64,000 nt of DNA, from positions 6,961 to 70,960 of the forward strand of contig JBKJUP010000022.1 of the NCBI GenBank assembly GCA_046590675.1. Reading direction: 5' to 3'. Within the stretch, counting starts at the first letter, position 1. The number at the start of each line of letters is the position of its first letter. Shown here piece by piece: positions 4,035 to 59,962 of this stretch. The notes under the pieces were generated by a model, which was not told where the DNA came from, searched no databases, and was given only the letters and a program-made list of their open reading frames with translations. The DNA is from Ferruginibacter sp. (lineage in GTDB: Bacteria; Bacteroidota; Bacteroidia; Chitinophagales; Chitinophagaceae). Both the position numbers and the translations under genes were made by a program.

Positions 4035-6479
4035 TTAACCTCTTGCTGCCCGGATGATATCAGCAAATACACCTGAGGCCGTTACATCTGCACCGGCTCC
4101 TGCACCTTTAATTACCAATGGTTGTTCTTTATATCTATCAGTGTAAAACAGCACAATATTGTCTTTACCATACAAATGATAAAAATCGTGGGCCGGGTCA
4201 ATGTGTTGTAACCCAACGGATGCTTTTCCGTTTTCAAATTTGGCTACAAATTTTAATTTCTTTCCATCGGCAGAAGCTGCCTCATACAATTGCTTAAAAT
4301 GATCCTCATGTTTTTCCATACACTGGTAAAATTCTTCCACGGTTCCCTGCATGCATGGTGGTGGCATAAAGGAATTATTGTCAACATCCTCCATTTCAAT
4401 TTTTTCACCAGCCTCTCTTACCAATATCATTATTTTACGCATCACATCTTTACCACTTAAATCAAGTCGTGGATCCGGTTCTGTATAGCCTTCATCCTGC
4501 GCCTGCTTCACCACCGATGCAAAACTTTTTTTACCGTCGTAATTATTAAATACAAAGTTGAGTGTTCCACTTAAAACAGCTTCCATTCTATGTACGTTAT
4601 CGCCACTGCGCAACAAATCATTTAAAGAACCGATGATGGGCAAACTTGCACCCACATTGGTTTCAAATATAAAATGTGCATTGAACTCTCTTGCCAGTTT
4701 TTTTAATTTGGTATAATATTCAAAGGAGGAAGAACAGGCAATTTTGTTACAGGCTACCACAGAAATGCTTTTCTGTAACAACTGGTCGTAACAGCTTGCC
4801 ACCAATTCATTTGCGGTAACATCTGCAAATACCGAATTGCGTAAATTTTTCAATTGAATGCGATCCAGGAAATCCTGCATTTCCATTGTTTCGCCATTTT
4901 CCAGTAAGTCTTTCCACTTTGTTAAATCAATTCCATTGTCATCAAACAACATTTTTCTGCTATTCGCAATGCCAACCACATTGATTTTTAAGTTCATATT
5001 CTTTAGCAGGTATTGTTGCTGCTGTAAAATTTGTGCCATCAGTTTACCTCCTACATTACCAACGCCTGCTACAAATAAATTAAGTTCTTTATTGACTGTT
5101 TCAAAAAACTCTTCATGCAATACGTTGATGGCTTTTTTTACATCATGGGTAGATATTACTGCAGAAATATTTCTTTCAGATGAACCCTGTGCAATGGCAC
5201 GAACATTTACACCGTTGCGACCAAGGTTGCCAAACATTTTACCACTGATACCCGGGTGACTTTTCATATTATCACCCACAAGTGCCACGATGGCCAGGTC
5301 TTTCTCTACAATGATAGGAGCTACTTTTTTTGTTTCAATTTCGTAGGCAAAAGCTTCGTCGATGGCGTGTTTTGCTTGTACTGAATAAGCAGCCTCAATA
5401 CCGACACAAATAGAATGTTCAGACGAACTTTGTGTAATGAGTATTACGTTTATTTTCTTATCTGCCAGCGATTCAAATAATCTTTTAGAAAACCCCGGAA
5501 TACCTACCATGCCACTACCTTCCAGGCTTAGCAATGATATACTGTTTATACTAGAGATGCCCCTGATGGAGCTGCCGTTTTTTGCCACATCTTTCTGGAT
5601 CAGCGTTCCTGCATCTCCGGGAGCAAACGTATTTTTTATCCAGGTGGGAATACCTTTGCTGCTTACCGGCTGTATAGTTGGCGGATAGATTACTTTGGCA
5701 CCAAAATGTGAAAGTTCCATTGCCTCCTGGTAAGAAATCTGTGGGATAATTTTTCCGGTGGTCACCAGCCTTGGATCAGCAGTCATCATTCCTGAAACAT
5801 CGGTCCATATTTCTAATACTTCTGCATTTAGCGCCGCAGCCAAAATTGCTGCAGTGTAGTCGGAGCCGCCGCGACCAAGTGTAGTATTGGCACCGCTTGC
5901 AGTGGCAGCAATAAAACCGGGCATCAGGTATAAATTAGCTGGCGCTGAAGAAAAATAATCTGTCACCTTTTGATTGGTCAATGTAAAATCTACCGTGGCT
6001 GCGCCAAATTCAGCATTGGTAATAATTAAGTCACGGGAATCTTTCCATTCACAACCTTCTGTATCTGTTTGAAACGCTGCTGCAATGATTTGTGAAGACA
6101 ATATTTCACCATAACTCATTACCCTATCCTTAGTCCGGGGCGATAATTCCCTTAGCAGGAAAATACCATTGCATATATCTTCAATTTCATTACACAAAGT
6201 TTTTACCTGGCTCAATAAACTGCTCTGCATGGTTAAAGGCACCAGTTCTTTTACAGTTACCAGGTGGCGCTGTTCAGATTCCTGCAGCTTTTTTTTATAA
6301 TCTTCATTACCATCTGCTGCAAGTGTACTACACTCAATCAACAAGTCGGTAATTCCACCCAGGGCTGAAACCACCACAATTGTTTTATCAATTTTAATTT
6401 TATCCTTAACAATAGCAATGACCTTACTTATGTTTTCAGCGTTTTTTACTGAACTTCCTCCAAACTTTAAAACCTGCAT
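4035..6479 (-). CDS. thrA: Bifunctional aspartate kinase/homoserine dehydrogenase I
   Basis: KFGGSS, LGRGGSDY, two ACT domains, GVGNVG and FETNVGASLP HSDH motifs. Confidence 0.96.
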   Translation of the reverse strand: MQVLKFGGSSVKNAENISKVIAIVKDKIKIDKTIVVVSALGGITDLLIECSTLAADGNEDYKKKLQESEQRHLVTVKELVPLTMQSSLLSQVKTLCNEIEDICNGIFLLRELSPRTKDRVMSYGEILSSQIIAAAFQTDTEGCEWKDSRDLIITNAEFGAATVDFTLTNQKVTDYFSSAPANLYLMPGFIAATASGANTTLGRGGSDYTAAILAAALNAEVLEIWTDVSGMMTADPRLVTTGKIIPQISYQEAMELSHFGAKVIYPPTIQPVSSKGIPTWIKNTFAPGDAGTLIQKDVAKNGSSIRGISSINSISLLSLEGSGMVGIPGFSKRLFESLADKKINVILITQSSSEHSICVGIEAAYSVQAKHAIDEAFAYEIETKKVAPIIVEKDLAIVALVGDNMKSHPGISGKMFGNLGRNGVNVRAIAQGSSERNISAVISTHDVKKAINVLHEEFFETVNKELNLFVAGVGNVGGKLMAQILQQQQYLLKNMNLKINVVGIANSRKMLFDDNGIDLTKWKDLLENGETMEMQDFLDRIQLKNLRNSVFADVTANELVASCYDQLLQKSISVVACNKIACSSSFEYYTKLKKLAREFNAHFIFETNVGASLPIIGSLNDLLRSGDNVHRMEAVLSGTLNFVFNNYDGKKSFASVVKQAQDEGYTEPDPRLDLSGKDVMRKIMILVREAGEKIEMEDVDNNSFMPPPCMQGTVEEFYQCMEKHEDHFKQLYEAASADGKKLKFVAKFENGKASVGLQHIDPAHDFYHLYGKDNIVLFYTDRYKEQPLVIKGAGAGADVTASGVFADIIRAARG

Positions 6480-19655: not shown

Positions 19656-20507
19656 TTAAACAATCATTTTTTCAATTGGCATGACTATAATTCCTTCTGC
19701 CTGGTATTGCTTCAATTTTTCAATTACTTCCCAAAAATCATTTTCATTTACAACACTCTGCACGCTGCTCCAGCCTTCTTCTGCCAATGGCACAACGGTG
19801 GGGCTTTTCATTCCCGGTAGTAAAGAGAAGATATTCTTCAACTGGGAATTGGGCGCATTTAGCAGGATGTATTTATTATTTTTTGCTGTTTTTACGGCGT
19901 TGATCCTTAACAGTAATTTTTCAAGAATGGCTTTATTTTCTTCAGACAATTCTTTATGAGCTGCCAACACCGCTTCTGACTGAAGGATTACTTCTACTTC
20001 TTTTAACCCATTTGTAAAAAGTGTACTTCCACTGCTTACCAAATCGCAAATACCTTCAGCCAGGCCGATACCGGGAGCAATCTCCACCGAACCGCTGATT
20101 TCATGTATTTCGGCATTGATCTTATTTGAAGTTAAATATCGTTGCAGAATATGCGCATAAGATGTAGCAATTTTCAATCCTTCCATATCCTGGATTGAAT
20201 TATATTCCATGGTTTTAGGAACTGCAATACTGAGTCTGCATCTGCCAAAACCCAGGCGATAAACGATGTTGACATCTTTATTTTTTTCCAGTACCACATT
20301 CTCGCCTACGATGCCGATGTCGGCAACACCATCATATACATATTGTGGAATATCATCGTCACGCAGAAAATAAACTTCCAACGGAAAATTAAAAGCAGCA
20401 GCCTTTAGTTGTTTGTTACCATTGTTTAATTCGATACCGCACTCCTTTAACAGTTTAATGGAGTCTTCATACAACCGACCTGATTTTTGAATAGCAATTT
20501 TTAACAT
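19656..20507 (-). CDS. hisG: ATP phosphoribosyltransferase (long form)
   Basis: MLKIAIQKSGRL, LRDDDIP, GSVEIAP, DLVSSGSTL; start at 20507. Confidence 0.96.
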   Translation of the reverse strand: MLKIAIQKSGRLYEDSIKLLKECGIELNNGNKQLKAAAFNFPLEVYFLRDDDIPQYVYDGVADIGIVGENVVLEKNKDVNIVYRLGFGRCRLSIAVPKTMEYNSIQDMEGLKIATSYAHILQRYLTSNKINAEIHEISGSVEIAPGIGLAEGICDLVSSGSTLFTNGLKEVEVILQSEAVLAAHKELSEENKAILEKLLLRINAVKTAKNNKYILLNAPNSQLKNIFSLLPGMKSPTVVPLAEEGWSSVQSVVNENDFWEVIEKLKQYQAEGIIVMPIEKMIV

Positions 20508-20568: not shown

Positions 20569-20604
20569 AAAAAAAGGACTTACCTTTTGAGTAAGCCCTT
20601 TTTT
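20569..20604 (-). terminator. his attenuator terminator
   Basis: Minus strand GGGCTTAC-TCAAAAG-GTAAGTCC-TTTTTTT between leader ORF and hisG. Confidence 0.85.
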
Positions 20605-20641
20605 GAAAATATGTTTAATACTACATACACATCAGCATAGC

Positions 20642-20689
20642 TTACCCAATGGCAAAATGATGATGATGTATGTGATTGAATGTGTTCAT
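20642..20689 (-). CDS. his operon leader peptide (hisL-like)
   Basis: MNTFNHIHHHHFAIG* with 5 His; followed by terminator; leader end GGTAAGC can pair with the terminator 5' arm GCTTAC. Confidence 0.9.
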   Translation of the reverse strand: MNTFNHIHHHHFAIG

Positions 20690-46965: not shown

Positions 46966-46984
46966 GTCTATAATTTTAATGGAC
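46966..46984. promoter_or_regulatory. cys-cluster palindromic operator, copy 1
   Basis: GTCTA-TAATTTTAA-TGGAC. Confidence 0.6.
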
Positions 46985-48629: not shown

Positions 48630-48648
48630 CTCTACCAAATTAATAGAC
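48630..48648. promoter_or_regulatory. cys-cluster palindromic operator, copy 2
   Basis: CTCTA-CCAAATTAA-TAGAC. Confidence 0.65.
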
Positions 48649-52511: not shown

Positions 52512-53381
52512 TTATTGGTATTTATTAATTGAGTTGCTAAACTGTCCCAATTCATCACTCACTAATTTTTCAAACTGAAAATCTTCAACCGGTTTAAAAT
52601 ATTCTCCTGTTTGCATTGTATAATTTAACCAGGCAAATTTTTCATTTAAAGCCACTACCCTGCCGATGATTACCAGGGTGGGTGAAGCAAACATTCTACC
52701 TTTTAAATTTTGTTCGTATTCATATAAATTACTGGTGTGGATTTGTTGCATTGGTGTTGTAGCCTGTTCTATCACTGCCAGTAATTTATCGGCTGCAATA
52801 TTATTCTTCACCAGGTTTTCCACAACGCCATCAAGCGTTTCAGACGACATGTAAAAAACAAGGGTATCATCGGAATTAGCCAACTCTTTCCAATAAACTG
52901 CAGATACCACATCTGATTTATAAAATGTTAACAGCCTAACTGCAGTGGCGTATCCCCTTGCGGTAAGTGGCATTCCTGCGTAGGCTGCTGCACCCAATGC
53001 TGCCGTAACACCCGGAACTATTTCATAAGGAATATTGTTGGCTACAATTGCTTCCAGCTCGTCCAGTATGTTGGAGAAAATAGATACATCACCTCCTTTT
53101 AAACGCACTACCAGCTTGCCTTCCTGTGCAAACTGTACGATCAGTTCATTGATGCTTTTTTGTGGCGTGCTAAAACCCCGGCGGCATTGCTTGCCCACAT
53201 AAATAATTTCAGCCTTTTCATTGGCATAGGTTGCCAGTATTTCTTTGCTTACCAACCGATCGGTTAATATTACATCTGCCAGTTGAAGATAGCGGGCTGC
53301 CTTTACGGTTATTAATTCCGGATCGCCGCAGCCTGCACCTGCAAGTATTACTTTTCCTGTATGTAAAATATTGTTACTCAT
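52512..53381 (-). CDS. cobA: Uroporphyrinogen-III C-methyltransferase (CysG-A)
   Basis: GAGCGDPELITVKA, VRLKGGD, VPGVTAA. Confidence 0.92.
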   Translation of the reverse strand: MSNNILHTGKVILAGAGCGDPELITVKAARYLQLADVILTDRLVSKEILATYANEKAEIIYVGKQCRRGFSTPQKSINELIVQFAQEGKLVVRLKGGDVSIFSNILDELEAIVANNIPYEIVPGVTAALGAAAYAGMPLTARGYATAVRLLTFYKSDVVSAVYWKELANSDDTLVFYMSSETLDGVVENLVKNNIAADKLLAVIEQATTPMQQIHTSNLYEYEQNLKGRMFASPTLVIIGRVVALNEKFAWLNYTMQTGEYFKPVEDFQFEKLVSDELGQFSNSINKYQ

Positions 53382-53386
53382 TTTAA

Positions 53387-53405
53387 GTCTACTATTTTAG
53401 TAGAT
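53387..53405. promoter_or_regulatory. cys-cluster palindromic operator, copy 3
   Basis: GTCTA-CTATTTTAG-TAGAT, 5 nt upstream of cobA ATG and just after a cysK terminator-like hairpin (CCTGGCG/CGCCAGG). Confidence 0.65.
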
Positions 53406-53457: not shown

Positions 53458-54369
53458 TTAAAATAATCCTTCGATGGATAAATATCTTTCACCGGTATCA
53501 TAATTGTAAGTCAACACTTTTGCTCCTGCCGGAATTTCAGCCAGCTTTTTAGCAACTGCGGCTAAAGATGCACCTGTTGAAATACCAACCAAAATACCCT
53601 CCTCTCTTGCGATGCGCTGTGCATAATCAAATGCTTCTTCCTTTGATACTGCGATGGTGCCATCTAACATGGCCGTATTAAGAATTGAAGGTACAAAGCC
53701 TGCTCCAATACCCTGTATGGGGTGAGGGCCGGGTGCACCACCAGCCAACACCGGTGACAGTTCCGGCTCTACTGCAAAAACCTTCAGGTTGGGAAAATGC
53801 TTTTTCAACACTTCTCCCACGCCGGTGATATGGCCACCGGTACCTACGCCAGTAATTAAATAATCAAGTCCGTCCGGAAAGTCATTGAGTATTTCCTGTG
53901 CTGATGTGGTGCGGTGTATTTCAGTATTTGCAGGATTGTCAAATTGCTGCGGCATCCATCCGTTTGGAATTTCTTTTTCAAGTTCACCCGCTTTTTCTAT
54001 GGCACCCTTCATACCTTTTTCACGGGGAGTTAATACAAACTCTGCTCCGTACAATGCCATTAAACGACGACGTTCAATGCTCATGCTTTCGGGCATTACC
54101 AAAATAATTTTATATCCTTTTACGGCAGCTACCATTGCCAAACCAATACCCGTGTTACCGGATGTAGGTTCAATGATAACGCTGTCTTTATGAAGTATTC
54201 CTTTTTGTTCTGCATCTTCAATCATTGCCAATGCAATCCGATCTTTGATACTGGCGCCCGGGTTTGTTTTTTCCAATTTGATCCACACTTCATTTTTATC
54301 GCCGAATAAATTATTGATCCTTACGTGTGGCGTGTTACCGATTGTTTCTAAAATATTATTTGCTTTCAT
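53458..54369 (-). CDS. cysK: Cysteine synthase A
   Basis: [34 protein letters not shown]. Confidence 0.95.
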
Positions 54370-54457
54370 CTTATGTATTTTACTCCTTATTTATTTTACC
54401 CGGAGTTCTTGATTTAGGAATGCTATTTTATTTTTTTATGTTGACAAATGGTATTCA

Positions 54458-54481
54458 GTACAAGTGTGCGACGCAACGAAG
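54458..54481 (-). repeat. Short dispersed repeat family A, copy 3
   Basis: Reverse complement CTTCGTTGCGTCGCACACTTGTAC. Confidence 0.7.
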
Positions 54482-54566
54482 CTGCTATAAAAAGCTACTG
54501 CCTGGTACCAAAATTTTTTAAACAATTATATCAATCAAACTAAATTTCTTTTTAGAAAATACCAAC

Positions 54567-55400
54567 CTAAATCACAAAATTCAATACATCCGGCAAAGGA
54601 TTTTTATCCCTGATACTTACCTCACTTTTATGATATACAATTGAGTGTGGCAACACACTATTGGTGAGCCAAACGTTTCCGCCAATTACGCTATCATGAC
54701 CAATAACCGTTTCACCACCGAGAATGGTTGCCCCGGAATATATGATCACATCGTCCTGAATTGTTGGATGCCTTTTTGTTTTGGCTTCGTCTTTATTTAC
54801 GCTCAATGCACCCAATGTAACGCCCTGGTAAATTTTTACATTGTCGCCAATCAATGCAGTTTCGCCAATTACAACACCGGTGCCATGATCAATAAAAAAT
54901 GACTCACCTATTTGAGCTCCCGGGTGAATATCAATACCCGTTTTACCGTGTGCATATTCTGCAAAAACCCTTGGCAAAATTTTCACCCCGGCCTTCCAAA
55001 GCTGGTGACTGAACCGATAAACCGCAGTAGCATAAAAGCCGGGATAAGCCACCAGCACCTCATCCAGCGATTCCGCAGCCGGATCAAATTTCATGATGGC
55101 CGCAGCATCCTTCAACAGTGCATCATAAATATTTTCGATTTCGTCAAAGAATTCGTTTGCTATTCGTTGCGTTTGATCGCCATCATTTACCACATCATAA
55201 ATTAATGTTGACAAATGACTTTTATACGATTCAAACTCCTTTGACATTTCATACGCTGATATTTTTTTTTGCTTTTCAGGTATGAATAAAAATTCAAAAA
55301 AGCCATCAATAAATTCCGTCGCCAATTCCTTGTCAGGAAAAGAACGGGCACATTGCTGGCGCTTTATATGCAGCTTATTAATAAAATTTTCGTTACTCAT
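54567..55400 (-). CDS. cysE: Serine O-acetyltransferase
   Basis: DPAA, YPGF.A, TGIDIHPGAQIG, IDHGTG, KRHPT. Confidence 0.93.
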   Translation of the reverse strand: MSNENFINKLHIKRQQCARSFPDKELATEFIDGFFEFLFIPEKQKKISAYEMSKEFESYKSHLSTLIYDVVNDGDQTQRIANEFFDEIENIYDALLKDAAAIMKFDPAAESLDEVLVAYPGFYATAVYRFSHQLWKAGVKILPRVFAEYAHGKTGIDIHPGAQIGESFFIDHGTGVVIGETALIGDNVKIYQGVTLGALSVNKDEAKTKRHPTIQDDVIIYSGATILGGETVIGHDSVIGGNVWLTNSVLPHSIVYHKSEVSIRDKNPLPDVLNFVI

Positions 55401-55451
55401 GTTGGTGGATGATTCGTTGTTAACTCAAAATAAAAAAAGATAAAATTAAAA

Positions 55452-56693
55452 CTATTGAATCATACAAGCTCCAACTGTTACATTGCTTGTTTCGTCTATT
55501 AAAATAGCTCCCCCATTTTCTCTCAATTTTTTATAAGAATCAAATGTAACAGGCGATGCCGTTTTTATTTTCACTTTTACGATATCATTCAACTGTGCCT
55601 GTTCCGGTGCCGGTTCTTTTAGCAAAGAGTTTACATCTAACTTATATTCTATTTCTTTTACAACAGCTTTTACTACCCTGCTGTTAATTTGCAACAGGTA
55701 TTTGTTTCCTTCTTTTAAAGGTTTGTTGCCCATCCAGCAAAGCAATACATCCAGTTCATTTTCTACCGAAGGCAGGTTATCGCTTTTTACAATTACATCA
55801 CCCCTGCTGATATCGATGTCGTCCTGCAGGTGAAGTACCACGCTTTGTGGCGCAAATGCTTCTGCTACTTCTTTGCCACCAATTTCTATATTACTAATTA
55901 CACTTGTTAACCCCGACGGTTGCACGACAATTGAATCGCCCTTTTTATAAATGCCACTGATTACTTTTCCGGCATAGCCGCGATAATCGTGCAATACCTC
56001 TGTTTGAGGACGGATTACATACTGAACAGGAAACCTGGCATCGGTATAATTGATGTCATTTTTAACCTCTACATTTTCCAACAGGTGCAATAAAGACTCG
56101 CCTTCGTACCACGGAAAATTAGGCGATTTTTCAACAATATTATCGCCATTGATTGCACTGATGGGAATATAGGTAATGTCTTTTAATCCCAGGGAAGTTG
56201 CCACGGCAGAATAGTCGATCACAATATTATTGAACACATCCTGCGAATTATTTACAAGATCCATTTTATTAATGGCTACTACTACATGCGGCATATCGAG
56301 CAATGAAGCAATGATTGAATGCCTTCTTGTTTGTTCTGAAACGCCATTGCGGGCATCAACCAATATTATTATAAGATCGGAGTTGGATGCGCCTGTAACC
56401 ATGTTACGTGTGTACTGCGTATGGCCTGGTGCATCTGCAATAATAAATTTGCGGCTGGGTGTAGAAAAATATTTATAGGCCACATCAATGGTGATGCCCT
56501 GCTCTCTTTCTGCACGCAATCCGTCTGTTAATAAAGCCAGGTCAATTTCGCCGTCGGTTTTATTCTTACTTTGTTTTTCGATTGCTTCCAACTGATCAAT
56601 CATGATGGATTTACTGTCGTACAATAAACGTCCGATCAAAGTGCTTTTTCCATCATCAACACTACCTGCGGTTATAAATCTTAAAATGTCCAT
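55452..56693 (-). CDS. cysN: Sulfate adenylyltransferase subunit 1 (no fused CysC)
   Basis: GSVDDGKSTLIGRLL, EREQGITIDVAY, DAPGH, NKMD. Confidence 0.95.
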   Translation of the reverse strand: MDILRFITAGSVDDGKSTLIGRLLYDSKSIMIDQLEAIEKQSKNKTDGEIDLALLTDGLRAEREQGITIDVAYKYFSTPSRKFIIADAPGHTQYTRNMVTGASNSDLIIILVDARNGVSEQTRRHSIIASLLDMPHVVVAINKMDLVNNSQDVFNNIVIDYSAVATSLGLKDITYIPISAINGDNIVEKSPNFPWYEGESLLHLLENVEVKNDINYTDARFPVQYVIRPQTEVLHDYRGYAGKVISGIYKKGDSIVVQPSGLTSVISNIEIGGKEVAEAFAPQSVVLHLQDDIDISRGDVIVKSDNLPSVENELDVLLCWMGNKPLKEGNKYLLQINSRVVKAVVKEIEYKLDVNSLLKEPAPEQAQLNDIVKVKIKTASPVTFDSYKKLRENGGAILIDETSNVTVGACMIQ

Positions 56694-56697
56694 ATTA

Positions 56698-56822
56698 GCC
56701 CCTGTCCCTTAAAGGGGAACTTAGTTTTGCACAGTATTAAATTTGTTTAAAATACTGCTGGTTAAAAATATTAATCTCGTAGTTAGCCTAAGCTTGCCTT
56801 CCCCTCTTTAGGGTTGTGGGCT
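56698..56822. repeat. Two oppositely oriented REP-like hairpins (family C) in cysD-cysN spacer
   Basis: GCCCCTGTCCCTTAAAGGGGAAC at 56698 and CCTTCCCCTCTTTAGGGTTGTGGGC at 56797. Confidence 0.55.
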
Positions 56823-56829
56823 TCCGGGC

Positions 56830-57783
56830 TTAAAAATAACCACCCTTTTTTCTATCTTCCATTGCTGCTTCACTTACACGATCATCAATTCTTGTTTCGC
56901 CGCGTTCGCTGGTTTTAGTTGCAATAATTTCCTTAATGATATCATCAATGCTATCTGCACTGGATTCTACGGCAGCAGTACAGGTCATATCGCCAACGGT
57001 TCTGTATCTTACTTTTTTAATTGATATTTTATCCGTTTCATCCAACTGAATAAATTTGGAAGTGGCCACTAATTGTCCCTGGTATTCCAGCACTTCCCTG
57101 TCGTGTGCAAAATAGATAGATGGTAACTCAATTTTATTTCTGCGGATATAATTCCAAATGTCCAGTTCTGTCCAGTTGCTGATTGGGAAAACCCGTACAT
57201 TTTCACCCTTATGAATTCTGCCATTGTAAGTGTTCCATAATTCGGGGCGTTGCAGTTTTGGATCCCACTGGCCAAACTCATCTCTTACAGAAAAAATTCT
57301 TTCCTTCGCTCTTGCCTTTTCTTCATCTCTGCGGGCACCGCCAATACATGCATCAAATTTAAATTCTTCAATGGTGTCGAGCAGGGTAAAAGTTTGCAAC
57401 GCATTGCGGCTGGCAAACTTTCCTTTTTGTTCGGTAAGGTGTTTTTCTTTGATGGTATCTTCTACGTTTCTAACAATCAGTTTTTCACCAATTTCAGCTA
57501 CAAATGAATCCCTGTAATCAAGTGCTTCCTGGAAATTATGACCGGTGTCAATATGTACCAGGGGAAAAGGAAATTTACCCGGACGAAATGCTTTCAATGC
57601 CAGGTGAACTAATACGATTGAATCTTTACCACCGGAAAACAATAAAGCCGGACGTTCAAACTGCCCCGCTACTTCCCTGAATATGTGGATCGATTCTGAT
57701 TCCAGTTGATCAAGGTAATCGAGGTAATGAACACCTACTCCGGAAACCTTGTTACCCTTATCTTCTACTCCTTCTGTTGACAT
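56830..57783 (-). CDS. cysD: Sulfate adenylyltransferase subunit 2
   Basis: LFSGGKDS, HIDTGHNF, GGARRDEEKARAKER, RYRTVGD. Confidence 0.96.
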   Translation of the reverse strand: MSTEGVEDKGNKVSGVGVHYLDYLDQLESESIHIFREVAGQFERPALLFSGGKDSIVLVHLALKAFRPGKFPFPLVHIDTGHNFQEALDYRDSFVAEIGEKLIVRNVEDTIKEKHLTEQKGKFASRNALQTFTLLDTIEEFKFDACIGGARRDEEKARAKERIFSVRDEFGQWDPKLQRPELWNTYNGRIHKGENVRVFPISNWTELDIWNYIRRNKIELPSIYFAHDREVLEYQGQLVATSKFIQLDETDKISIKKVRYRTVGDMTCTAAVESSADSIDDIIKEIIATKTSERGETRIDDRVSEAAMEDRKKGGYF

Positions 57784-57802: not shown

Positions 57803-58543
57803 TTAAGCTTTTATGGTAAGGTTACTCTTTTCGTCATGCACATGTAAGCCGCATTCTTTTTTATCGGCATCTTCCCACCACCATCTTCCAGCCCTGAAAT
57901 CTTCGCCCGGTTGAATGGCTCTTGTACAAGGCGCACAACCAATGCTTACAAATCCACGATCGTGCAAAGGATTATAAGGCACCCTGTTTTTTTGAATATA
58001 ATTTTTCACATCCTCTGTCGTCCAGTTGATGATGGGATGATATTTTATTACCTGGTTCAACTCGTCCCATTCCAACATGGGCAGATCTTTTCTATCTGAA
58101 GAATGTTCAGCTCTTAAACCTGTTACCCAAATTGCGTTACCGGCAAGCGCCCTTTTAAGCGGTTCAACTTTGCGGATACCACAGCATGATTTCCTGTTGG
58201 CGACTGACTCATAAAATGAATTGGGACCGTTGGCCTCTACAAAATTTTGCAGTGCATCCTGGTTGGGATAGTATGCTTTAATGTTAGTTTGGTACATGGC
58301 GTTGGTGCTGCTCCAAACAGAATATGTTTCGGCAAACAGACGGCCAGTATCTAATGTAAAAATTTTTACAGGTAACTTATTGCTTAAAATCTCATGAGAG
58401 ATCACCTGGTCTTCAAAACTAAAACTGGTGGAGAATGTAACTTTTCCCGGAAATTTTTCTGTCAATACTTTTAAAAATGAAGATATGCTTAGTCCACCTG
58501 ACTGGTGGAGTAATTGAGCGATGTTTTGTTGTTGTTGATTCAT
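57803..58543 (-). CDS. cysH: APS/PAPS reductase, 4Fe-4S (APS-reductase) type
   Basis: LDTG, CCGIRKVEPL, SIGCAPCT, RAGRW, ECGLH. Confidence 0.93.
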   Translation of the reverse strand: MNQQQQNIAQLLHQSGGLSISSFLKVLTEKFPGKVTFSTSFSFEDQVISHEILSNKLPVKIFTLDTGRLFAETYSVWSSTNAMYQTNIKAYYPNQDALQNFVEANGPNSFYESVANRKSCCGIRKVEPLKRALAGNAIWVTGLRAEHSSDRKDLPMLEWDELNQVIKYHPIINWTTEDVKNYIQKNRVPYNPLHDRGFVSIGCAPCTRAIQPGEDFRAGRWWWEDADKKECGLHVHDEKSNLTIKA

Positions 58544-58604
58544 TTTTAAGTGTAAAATTGTTGGAGAAAAAATACCGGAGAAAATGATTTGACTTACTTG
58601 CTTA

Positions 58605-58667
58605 TCAGCAGCAGCGAATGGAGCTGCAACACTTGCACATATACATTATTTGAGGATTTGAAGCCAT
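58605..58667 (-). CDS. Cys-rich leader peptide of the cys operon
   Basis: MASNPQIMYMCKCCSSIRCC* (5 Cys in last 10 codons), tandem stops TGA TAA, 61 nt upstream of cysH. Confidence 0.75.
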   Translation of the reverse strand: MASNPQIMYMCKCCSSIRCC

Positions 58668-58679
58668 ATATTTATATAA

Positions 58680-58698
58680 GTCTATAGAATTAGTAGAC
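58680..58698. promoter_or_regulatory. cys-cluster palindromic operator, copy 4
   Basis: GTCTA-TAGAATTAG-TAGAC, overlapping the -7 element by 1 nt. Confidence 0.75.
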
Positions 58699-58705
58699 AA
58701 ATATA
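58698..58705 (-). promoter_or_regulatory. -7 promoter element of the cys operon
   Basis: Minus-strand TATATTTG exact TAnnTTTG match. Confidence 0.7.
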
Positions 58706-59026: not shown

Positions 59027-59962
59027 TCATAATGCTTTTTCAGCTTCCCATTTGCTTCTTCCCCATCCGGCTATTACATGTTTTTCGCTGTGGTAAGATG
59101 AACGGACCAGGGGACCGCTTTCAACATAATCAAATCCCATATTGTATCCTATTTCTCTCAATTCCTTAAACTCGTCGGGATGTACAAAACGTTGTACCTG
59201 TAAGTGCTTCTTGCTGGGTTGCAGGTATTGACCAATTGTAATAACGTCCACATGGCTGTCACGCAGGTTTTGCATGGTTTCAATAACTTCTTCTTTGGTT
59301 TCACCCAGCCCAAGCATAATGCCGCTTTTAGTACGCATACAGCCTTGCTTTAAAATACGCAGGGTTTCCATACTACGCCAGTACTTAGCTTGTATACGTA
59401 CTTCTTTGGTGAGCCGTTCCACTGTTTCAATATTGTGAGAAACTACTTCGGGAGCAGCATCAATGATGCGTTGAATGTTTTCTGCTTCAGCTTTAAAATC
59501 CGGAATCAGGGTTTCCAAAGTAGTATTTGGGTTCAACGCTTTGATGGCTTTAATGGTATTGTACCAAACGATACTGCCACCATCTTTAATTTCATCTCTG
59601 TCAACTGAAGTAACAACGGCGTGCTTTACTTTCATCAGGTGAATGGCTTCAGCTACCCGTTGTGGTTCGTCCCAATCTACCGGGTCGGGGCGGCCGGTTG
59701 CTACCGCACAAAATCCGCAACTGCGTGTGCAGATATTGCCCAAAATCATAAAGGTTGCTGTGCCCTCACCCCAACACTCGCCCATATTAGGACAATTGCC
59801 ACTTTCGCAAATGGTATGTAATTTATGCTGATCAACTAACCCTCTTACATGTTTATATTCCTCGCCTATCGGCAATTTAACGCGTAGCCAATTTGGCTTT
59901 TTTAGTGGGGAAACTTCCTGCCCTTGCTCTACAACACCATCCAATACCGATAATTCTATCAT
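59027..59962 (-). CDS. lipA: Lipoyl synthase
   Basis: [20 protein letters not shown] radical-SAM motif, RSSYH. Confidence 0.97.

Follow-up and report, generated by a model that had tools for sequence, protein, structure and literature searches.

A putative cysteine-sensing leader peptide layered on a predicted Rrf2-type operator ahead of the sulfate-assimilation operon of Ferruginibacter

The window analyzed here is a 64,000-nucleotide (nt) stretch of DNA from Ferruginibacter sp. (Bacteroidota; Chitinophagaceae; GenBank assembly GCA_046590675.1, contig JBKJUP010000022.1, positions 6,961 to 70,960), in which a short open reading frame (sORF) rich in cysteine codons precedes cysH, the first gene of a sulfate-assimilation operon. 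A reading of the letters made without database searches (the sequence-only reading) had proposed that ribosome stalling at these codons controls read-through into cysH, possibly via Rho, in addition to control by a repressor. According to the present analysis, the sORF very probably acts as a leader peptide that senses cysteine, with an Rrf2-type operator as a further layer of control, and the earlier interpretation was supported in each part that sequence can test. With the operator layer included, a cysteine-sensing leader peptide of cysHDNEK at 58667-58605 is the best explanation of the data, with a probability of roughly 0.7. The reading is carried by the anatomy of the leader, its conservation, its specificity for Cys codons and for genes tied to Cys, and the lack of any terminator or RNA switch.

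The leader ahead of cysH and its conservation

The leader and the operon behind it consist of the following elements, in window coordinates:

58705-58698, minus strand: -7 promoter box TATATTTG (TAnnTTTG, Bacteroidota-type), read directly from the sequence
58698-58680, no strand assigned: palindromic operator GTCTACTAATTCTATAGAC (GTCTAC-N7-ATAGAC), read directly from the sequence
58667-58605, minus strand: leader sORF MASNPQIMYMCKCCSSIRCC, 20 codons plus TGA, from ATG to TGA, read directly from the sequence
58611-58627, minus strand: weak stem within the sORF, GCAGC-N7-GCUGC, from the fold
58604-58544, minus strand: 61-nt spacer between sORF and cysH, unstructured, U/C-rich and G-poor, from sequence and fold
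58584-58563, minus strand: pyrimidine tract inside the spacer, TTTTCTCCGGTATTTTTTCTCC (also written UUUUCUCCGGUAUUUUUUCUCC), read directly from the sequence
57803-58543, minus strand: cysH (phosphoadenylyl-sulfate/adenylyl-sulfate (APS) reductase), first gene of the operon, 246 amino acids (aa), ATG at 58543, NF002537, 2.4e-80
53458-57783, minus strand: cysD, cysN, cysE and cysK, by profile matches
53450-53424: G+C-rich terminator after cysK, CCTGGCG..CGCCAGG plus T-run

The -7 box, operator, sORF, spacer and cysH all lie, to the base, where the sequence-only reading had placed them. The operator shares the last base of the -7 box and should therefore cover the transcription start; from the position of the box, the untranslated region (UTR) ahead of the sORF is predicted to measure roughly 20–25 nt. 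The sORF reads ATG GCT TCA AAT CCT CAA ATA ATG TAT ATG TGC AAG TGT TGC AGC TCC ATT CGC TGC TGC TGA, with three Met codons and with Cys at codons 11, 13, 14, 19 and 20, which places five Cys within the last 10 codons and consecutive pairs at codons 13-14 and 19-20. The weak stem pairs the codon 18-19 region (CGC-UGC, including the penultimate Cys codon) with the Cys14-Ser15 codons. Upstream of the leader, lipA ends at 59027 and two terminator-like hairpins follow, which indicates that the leader has its own promoter. On its 3' side the genes run on the same strand in the order cysH, cysD, cysN, cysE, cysK, cobA, cysJ and cysI.

For comparison, 80 cysH loci were fetched from Ferruginibacter and other Chitinophagaceae, of which 78 entered the sORF counts and 61 unique leaders the geometry counts; the nearest of these cysH loci likewise place the window in Ferruginibacter. 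In the 200 nt ahead of cysH, 59% of the 78 orthologous loci carry a sORF whose last 10 codons include at least three Cys, against 1.3% in the reverse complement and 0.4% in shuffles of these 200 nt and 2.6% in the region 300–500 nt upstream. A Cys leader at the cys genes had been judged unlikely to arise by chance, and the gap between loci and shuffles agrees with this. Conservation of the Cys enrichment in orthologous leaders, posed beforehand as a test, was found and proved specific for the frame, with TGY triplets distributed 227/98/14 over phases 0/1/2 and the phase-1 excess due mainly to ATG-TGY codon pairs. Most loci carry a sORF of about 21 codons that ends in Cys-Cys or Arg-Cys about 60 nt ahead of cysH, the remaining peptide being widely divergent. 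The commonest length is exactly 21 codons (37 of 67 sORFs) and the commonest distance from stop to cysH 61–64 nt; Cys makes up 18% and Met 10% of the residues. Every one of 34 21-mers has Cys as its final residue, with variation at other positions. Compared with L001, its closest relative, the window shows a synonymous change in one Cys codon and the replacement of two Ser codons. A conserved frame, length, stop and set of Cys codons combined with a drifting peptide is how a leader peptide would be expected to look.

The promoter geometry is conserved as well. The TAnnTTTG box is found in 59/61 unique leaders and ends about 30 nt before the sORF ATG, and the operator is present in all 61 (56 by the strict pattern) as opposed to 3 of 1220 control 80-mers. 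The operator ends at a fixed distance of 12 nt from the ATG, and the arrangement of -7 box, operator, sORF and spacer is kept in 61/61 loci. The cultivable Ferruginibacter paludis CECT 8366 (L032) and Ferruginibacter sp. SUN002 (L025) are among the relatives that carry the module. As a separate observation, Met codons are about twofold enriched in Ferruginibacter sORFs (consensus IMCMCKCC), so that Cys and Met may both be sensed by the leaders.

The spacer had been described as pyrimidine-rich and free of a hairpin terminator, and both the sequence and the terminator scan agree: no terminator-like hairpin was found between sORF and cysH in the window, and terminator-like sites occur in only four of 60 unique orthologous leaders under criteria that do find the terminator of the his leader described below. 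The leader does not fold better than its shuffles (z -0.49), and in the consensus fold of 24 aligned leaders the only stem consists of five pairs inside the sORF (-2.5 kcal/mol, one compensated pair), the significance of which is doubtful (mean z -0.5). Neither fold contained a competing antiterminator overlapping the regulatory codons, and an Rfam scan returned no family at gathering score anywhere in the window. A classical terminator/antiterminator relay was rejected, as far as sequence goes, on the missing terminator, the unremarkable fold and the lack of a consensus structure. The view that a conserved hairpin is the true reason for the UGC/UGU triplets was also rejected, because a weak 5-bp stem accounts neither for the frame bias nor for the conservation of start, length and stop. 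Termination-reinitiation was discarded on account of the 61-nt gap and the wrong sign; it has been proposed only for gaps of about 10–14 nt (PMC4833913). A sub-clade of leaders (L021, L031, L033, L034, L040 and L063) has a hairpin of its own, GGUUUA-CCGUUGU-UAAACC, with the last Cys codon in the loop, the stop in the 3' arm and compensatory changes in the outer stem pairs.

The operator and further leaders in the genome

A scan of the window for the operator pattern GYCYAY-N7-RTAGAC, tolerating one mismatch, gave eight matches (four sites, both strands) where 1.5 were expected. The sites other than the one at cysH, with the Cys-codon sORFs found elsewhere, are as follows:

53387-53405: second operator copy, directly before cobA-cysJ-cysI (cobA ATG at 53381)
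48630-48648: third operator copy, before a siroheme-synthase(N)/TauE fusion gene
46966-46984: fourth operator copy, before the leader of a TonB-dependent receptor gene
46951-46916, minus strand: second Cys sORF of the window, MRRLLLNRCCR and stop, 106 nt before the TonB-dependent receptor gene
46809-43888: TonB-dependent receptor gene
C12:119164-119241, plus strand, outside the window: cysS leader sORF MLLKIHTYCFLSSCCCCTSECATIA, 160 nt ahead of cysS

The fusion gene (48566-47013) encodes siroheme synthase N-terminal domains and a TauE/SafE sulfite-exporter-like domain; its operator, like that of cobA-cysJ-cysI, has no accompanying sORF. Given these operators and the terminator after cysK, the gene cluster comprises at least three transcription units. 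The sole perfect palindrome elsewhere in the genome, GTCTATCAAATAAGTAGAC, lies between a divergent peroxiredoxin gene and an Rrf2-family gene (C59:65087-66232), 60 nt before the latter. With this site, the operator layer proposed in the sequence-only reading is found in 61/61 leaders, at four sulfur loci of the window and ahead of a regulator gene. The regulator (C59:65819-66232) has 137 aa with four clustered Cys residues and matches TIGR00738 at 4.7e-28, but it falls short of the cut-offs set for the CymR and IscR models (55.8 and 57.6 bits); the genome holds three Rrf2 genes including this one. Autoregulation is common among Rrf2-family regulators, and the operator before the gene therefore makes its product the likely candidate repressor of the operator. 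If so, the site at the peroxiredoxin/Rrf2 pair would be a candidate link between the sulfur regulon and a thiol peroxidase.

Across the whole 6.2-Mb genome, 51 intergenic sORFs starting with ATG have at least four Cys in 10 residues, and 17 of them (counted from the listing) have a gene start within 300 nt downstream, two of these genes being cysH and cysS. The cysS sORF has its own TATATTTG box just 9 nt before the ATG, is nearly leaderless and lacks an operator; a leader with at least three Cys in eight residues was found at 38/76 related loci, compared with 2/76 in the reverse complement, with the consensus ..YYFxSCCCCPCGIA followed by the stop. At the TonB receptor, where the sequence-only reading had seen the arrangement repeated, operator and sORF are indeed both present, and a CC-containing sORF (motif ..RCC..) is conserved at 41/76 orthologous loci as against 1/76 in the reverse-complement control. 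Conserved Cys-codon sORFs thus stand at three unrelated cysteine-tied transcription units: those of cysH, of cysS and of the TonB receptor, the last of which probably imports a sulfur source and belongs to the same regulon. These sORFs, which appear not to have been annotated so far, link cysS and the receptor to cysteine supply and give a hint at the receptor's import substrate. A different short frame, MEHFVPQCKLC[RQ]C[GR]C, has at least four intergenic copies at unrelated places (C78:113939, C87:15874, C90:19704 and C91:69927) and is probably a small repeated element, not a leader.

Leaders had also been claimed at two other amino acid operons of the window, and both are real:

20689-20642, minus strand: His leader MNTFNHIHHHHFAIG
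6663-6580, minus strand: Thr/Ile leader (M)ASHLISYRTTSATIAIGFIIVIIITR, GTG start, 100 nt before a thrA-like gene (ATG at 6479)

The His leader is followed by a terminator, GGGCUUAC-N7-GUAAGUCC plus U7, before hisG (ATG at 20507; region 20569-20689); the terminator was found by a script with stated criteria, and a first scan with the same stated criteria did not list the hairpin. The Thr/Ile leader, which starts with GTG, has neither a terminator-like site nor a significant fold; a small hairpin, UUACCC-GUUAA-GGGUAA, encloses its stop codon. Like those of the cys leader, its regulatory codons stand directly at the stop. This hints at a design shared by the terminator-less cys and Thr/Ile leaders. 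A single genome with a classical (his) and terminator-less (cys, thr) leaders is a good place to learn how a stalled ribosome signals without a terminator, a question that dates from the 2005 prediction of actinobacterial cys leaders.

Possible relays from the leader to cysH

The locus suggests a concrete model in two layers, an Rrf2-type repressor and a leader that senses Cys-tRNA. The first layer would be the Bacteroidota-type promoter, with its start site covered by the operator, to which an Rrf2-family repressor encoded at another place in the genome would most likely bind. In the second, ribosomes supplied with plentiful Cys-tRNA would pass the five Cys codons, terminate and leave, keeping cysH and the following genes low; with Cys-tRNA scarce, a ribosome would be parked on the Cys codons, above all on the last ones before the stop, and downstream expression would rise. 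In this model, five points are predictions from sequence: that the sORF is translated, that ribosomes stall on it, which way regulation runs, that Rho takes part and which protein acts as repressor. The signal would be relayed neither by a classical terminator/antiterminator pair nor by unmasking of the cysH start. The preferred relay resembles that of the E. coli tna operon: the parked ribosome would stand at the 5' edge of an unstructured, C-rich and G-poor stretch, keep Rho off and thereby allow read-through into cysH. This Rho-blocking relay is the leading candidate, put at about one chance in three. The stretch in question is:

58503-58580, minus strand: C>G bubble of 78 nt (C=22, G=4), candidate Rho loading site, from a finer scan

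The bubble extends from 24 nt after the sORF stop to about 40 nt into cysH and covers the 3' two-thirds of the spacer. A coarser scan gave C=20 and G=4, a ratio of 5.0; among 998 5' regions of the genome this is the 97.7th percentile, and the his leader stands at the 12th. The median maximum C/G was 3.6 in the 61 leaders, whereas three internal controls gave 1.7, 1.5 and 1.3. The genome's 90th percentile was exceeded by 61% of leaders and 0–3% of controls, and the window of maximum C/G started at a median of 21 nt after the stop. The genome encodes rho (574-aa frame). An invariably terminal Cys codon, a conserved C>G bubble and the presence of rho together fit a ribosome that hinders Rho loading.

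Several points weigh against this account. The simple C-minus-G excess of the spacer is equalled or surpassed in 16% of the genome's 5' regions and is therefore only mildly unusual, the 78-nt window measure being the clearer of the two; the other terminator-less leaders, thr and TonB, reach only ordinary C/G ratios (74th and 64th percentile), and G-poor sequence around start codons is common in the phylum. The evidence for a Rho relay is base composition only. A ribosome parked on the last Cys codon is expected to end about 10 nt short of the bubble, and masking would accordingly be partial. The relay may also differ between species, given a spacer element that is missing in the window (below). 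The loci compared are from related species and are not independent events, and the counts overstate the independent support. Finally, translation of the sORF and a response to cysteine are both predictions from sequence.

The spacer element just mentioned is a near-invariant stretch of about 35 nt, TTTTGGCTAAATTTTTTGCAGACTTTTTTACCCA, found in most Ferruginibacter species (L003, L005-L013, L019, L024, L029 and others). It is more conserved than the sORF, has an operator-like geometry (GGCTAA-N7-GCAGAC) and is a possible second site for protein binding. Both the window and L001 have diverged from it; a second operator in the spacer as the general relay was rejected, as GGCTAA-N7-GCAGAC is absent from both.

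Other routes from a parked ribosome to higher cysH expression were weighed against the Rho-blocking relay. In translational attenuation of the mycobacterial or ermC type, the ribosome would melt a pairing that hides the cysH start and raise cysH translation and, via polarity, its mRNA. This is the proven mechanism of the closest known system, and some sub-clades offer a suitable pairing: in some, the Cys-codon region GUGUAUGUG pairs with cysH codons 3-5 (CAUACAC), z being below -2 in 10% of leaders, and in another there is complementarity between CAAUCAUG at the sORF start and CAUGAUUG at the cysH start. With a ribosome parked on the sORF, opening the start region also becomes cheaper, at a mean of 4.36 instead of 5.07 kcal/mol. 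However, the best duplex between sORF and cysH start is no better than in shuffles (z -0.19 in the window, family mean -0.34), the opening cost of 3.9 kcal/mol in the window is ordinary for the genome, the shift of 0.65 kcal/mol produced by a parked ribosome is no more than that of a control block at the sORF start (p=0.44), and the alignment of 24 leaders shows no conserved pairing between sORF and cysH. Translational attenuation is thus unlikely. Direct pairing with the cysH start, not significant in the window or family-wide, and unmasking of that start, the effect of which does not exceed the control block, were both rejected. The sub-clade pairings suggest that the relay may not be uniform. 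In the clade with CAAUCAUG and CAUGAUUG (distant Chitinophagaceae L051, L054, L058, L059, L062 and L067) the complement is exact and an 8-bp helix closes the whole leader in the minimum free energy (MFE) fold, which may represent a different relay by translational coupling.

Ribosomes parked near the 5' end might alternatively stabilize the mRNA, as on erm leaders, by shielding an A/U-rich leader from 5'-end-dependent or endonucleolytic decay. The sORF begins only about 20–25 nt from the predicted 5' end in a fixed geometry, the A/U-rich leader is free of structure and revealed no other relay element, and stabilization needs nothing beyond these features; but it does not account for the invariant terminal Cys codon, the constrained spacer length or the conservation of the C>G bubble, and we regard it as distinctly improbable. 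A further alternative assigns the sORF no sensing role, with the Rrf2-type repressor acting alone and the Cys-rich frame being untranslated 5' UTR under constraints of another kind or encoding a functional small Cys-rich peptide. The operator is as conserved as the sORF (61/61) and could by itself give sulfur-responsive control; cobA-cysJI and the siroheme/TauE gene carry it without a sORF. Against this stand the in-frame TGY bias and the conserved start, length and stop with a drifting peptide, which are the signature of a leader and not of a functional peptide, the conserved poly-Cys sORF of cysS that occurs without any operator, and the Cys-run sORFs of other Bacteroidota that are joined to classical terminators; we therefore hold this alternative to be very improbable. 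Returning to the cysteine-sensing leader with a parked-ribosome relay, a wider proposal is a ribosome-read cysteine regulon of Chitinophagaceae, comprising at least three units (cysHDNEK, cysS and the TonB importer) and a terminator-less relay, shared with the Thr/Ile leader, that would block Rho or another factor binding naked RNA. This proposal is tentative, the odds being against it as a whole.

Known attenuators and distribution in Bacteroidota

Polycysteine sORFs are proven cysteine-responsive attenuators in mycobacteria (Canestrari et al., bioRxiv 10.1101/834739), where a stalled ribosome melts a duplex that hides the next start (bioRxiv 10.1101/834739). Actinobacterial Cys leaders had been predicted earlier by Seliverstov et al. 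in 2005 (PMC1262725), who already raised Rho for the terminator-less ones (PMC1262725), and an upstream open reading frame (uORF) with Cys codons, the uORFC-8-2 motif, has been predicted before cysS in Rhodobacterales (PMC8632094). Two transcriptome papers on Bacteroidota treat leader-peptide-like sORFs in general terms only. No published Cys leader in Bacteroidota was found in the literature searched, in which journal coverage was incomplete, in line with the earlier remark that no characterized equivalent was known; nothing was found there on the regulation of sulfate assimilation in the phylum either.

The cys leader shares with the mycobacterial polycysteine sORFs (Ms5788A, the "Cys ribulon") consecutive Cys codons near the stop, a position ahead of cysteine-metabolism genes, the lack of an intrinsic terminator and the occurrence at several separate loci per genome (here cysH, cysS and the TonB receptor). 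It differs in that the mycobacterial sORFs are leaderless, whereas here the sORF is not at the predicted 5' end, a gap of about 30 nt separating the -7 box from the ATG in most loci; moreover, no duplex hiding the downstream start was found here, and a repressor operator is added. With the classical attenuators (trpL, hisL and thrL of E. coli/Salmonella, and the his leader of the window) it has in common an enrichment of end-product codons in a 5'-leader short frame of a biosynthetic operon. Those attenuators, however, have a terminator and an antiterminator, both of which the cys leader lacks, and their regulatory codons lie several codons before the stop, whereas those of the cys leader abut it. 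The cys leader is therefore like the mycobacterial and classical systems in what it is proposed to sense, and it lacks the defining structural features of both.

The tnaC-tnaA system of E. coli, in which Rho-dependent attenuation is relieved by a held ribosome, offers a likeness in the proposed stall site at the end of the sORF and in the adjoining unstructured, C-rich and G-poor stretch free of a hairpin terminator, Rho being no more than a candidate in the present case. The nascent TnaC peptide senses free tryptophan and stalls the ribosome at the stop codon, whereas here uncharged tRNA-Cys would be sensed at sense codons, and the tna spacer measures about 220 nt compared with 61 nt. Like uORFC-8-2, the leader is a predicted Cys-codon uORF attenuator, and the Ferruginibacter genome also has a poly-Cys sORF before cysS; unlike it, uORFC-8-2 has two stems and a U-run terminator, belongs to another phylum and concerns cysS only. 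For the first layer, Rrf2-family repressors such as CymR of Bacillus and IscR provide the parallel of a palindromic operator over promoters of cysteine and sulfur genes; the candidate regulator differs from them in scoring below the cut-offs of both models and in its four clustered Cys, its binding being predicted only. A further difference from the mycobacterial setting is that Bacteroidota largely lack Shine-Dalgarno-led initiation. If the wider proposal of a cysteine regulon holds, a phylum that starts translation without depending on such pairing would have, in the parked ribosome, a general way of attenuating its operons.

For the wider distribution, 301 Bacteroidota genomes were sampled, of which 127 have cysH, and the upstream regions of 60 were fetched. 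Cys-rich sORFs precede cysH in five of 10 sampled Chitinophagaceae genera (g1, g5, g8, g10 and g11) and in other families, for example MIFAISCCCCCCSKSLCSLM, ..SSRMTCCC, ..AACCCPAFCC and ..CMMMMCCM.., and Cys-codon leaders seem to be widespread in Bacteroidota. None of the six examples from Chitinophagaceae has a terminator, and the version in this family would seem to be a terminator-less variant combined with the operator. Two distant examples, L128 (family f27, CCCCCC) and L140 (family f5, CMMMMCCM), have strong classical terminators behind them (ACCCGC..GCGGGT plus T7; AAGCCTCTTG..CAAGAGGCTT plus T7), the second with a matching antiterminator segment inside the leader frame, that of L140. 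This junction of Cys-run sORFs with classical terminators in other families ties Cys-codon runs to attenuation in the phylum.

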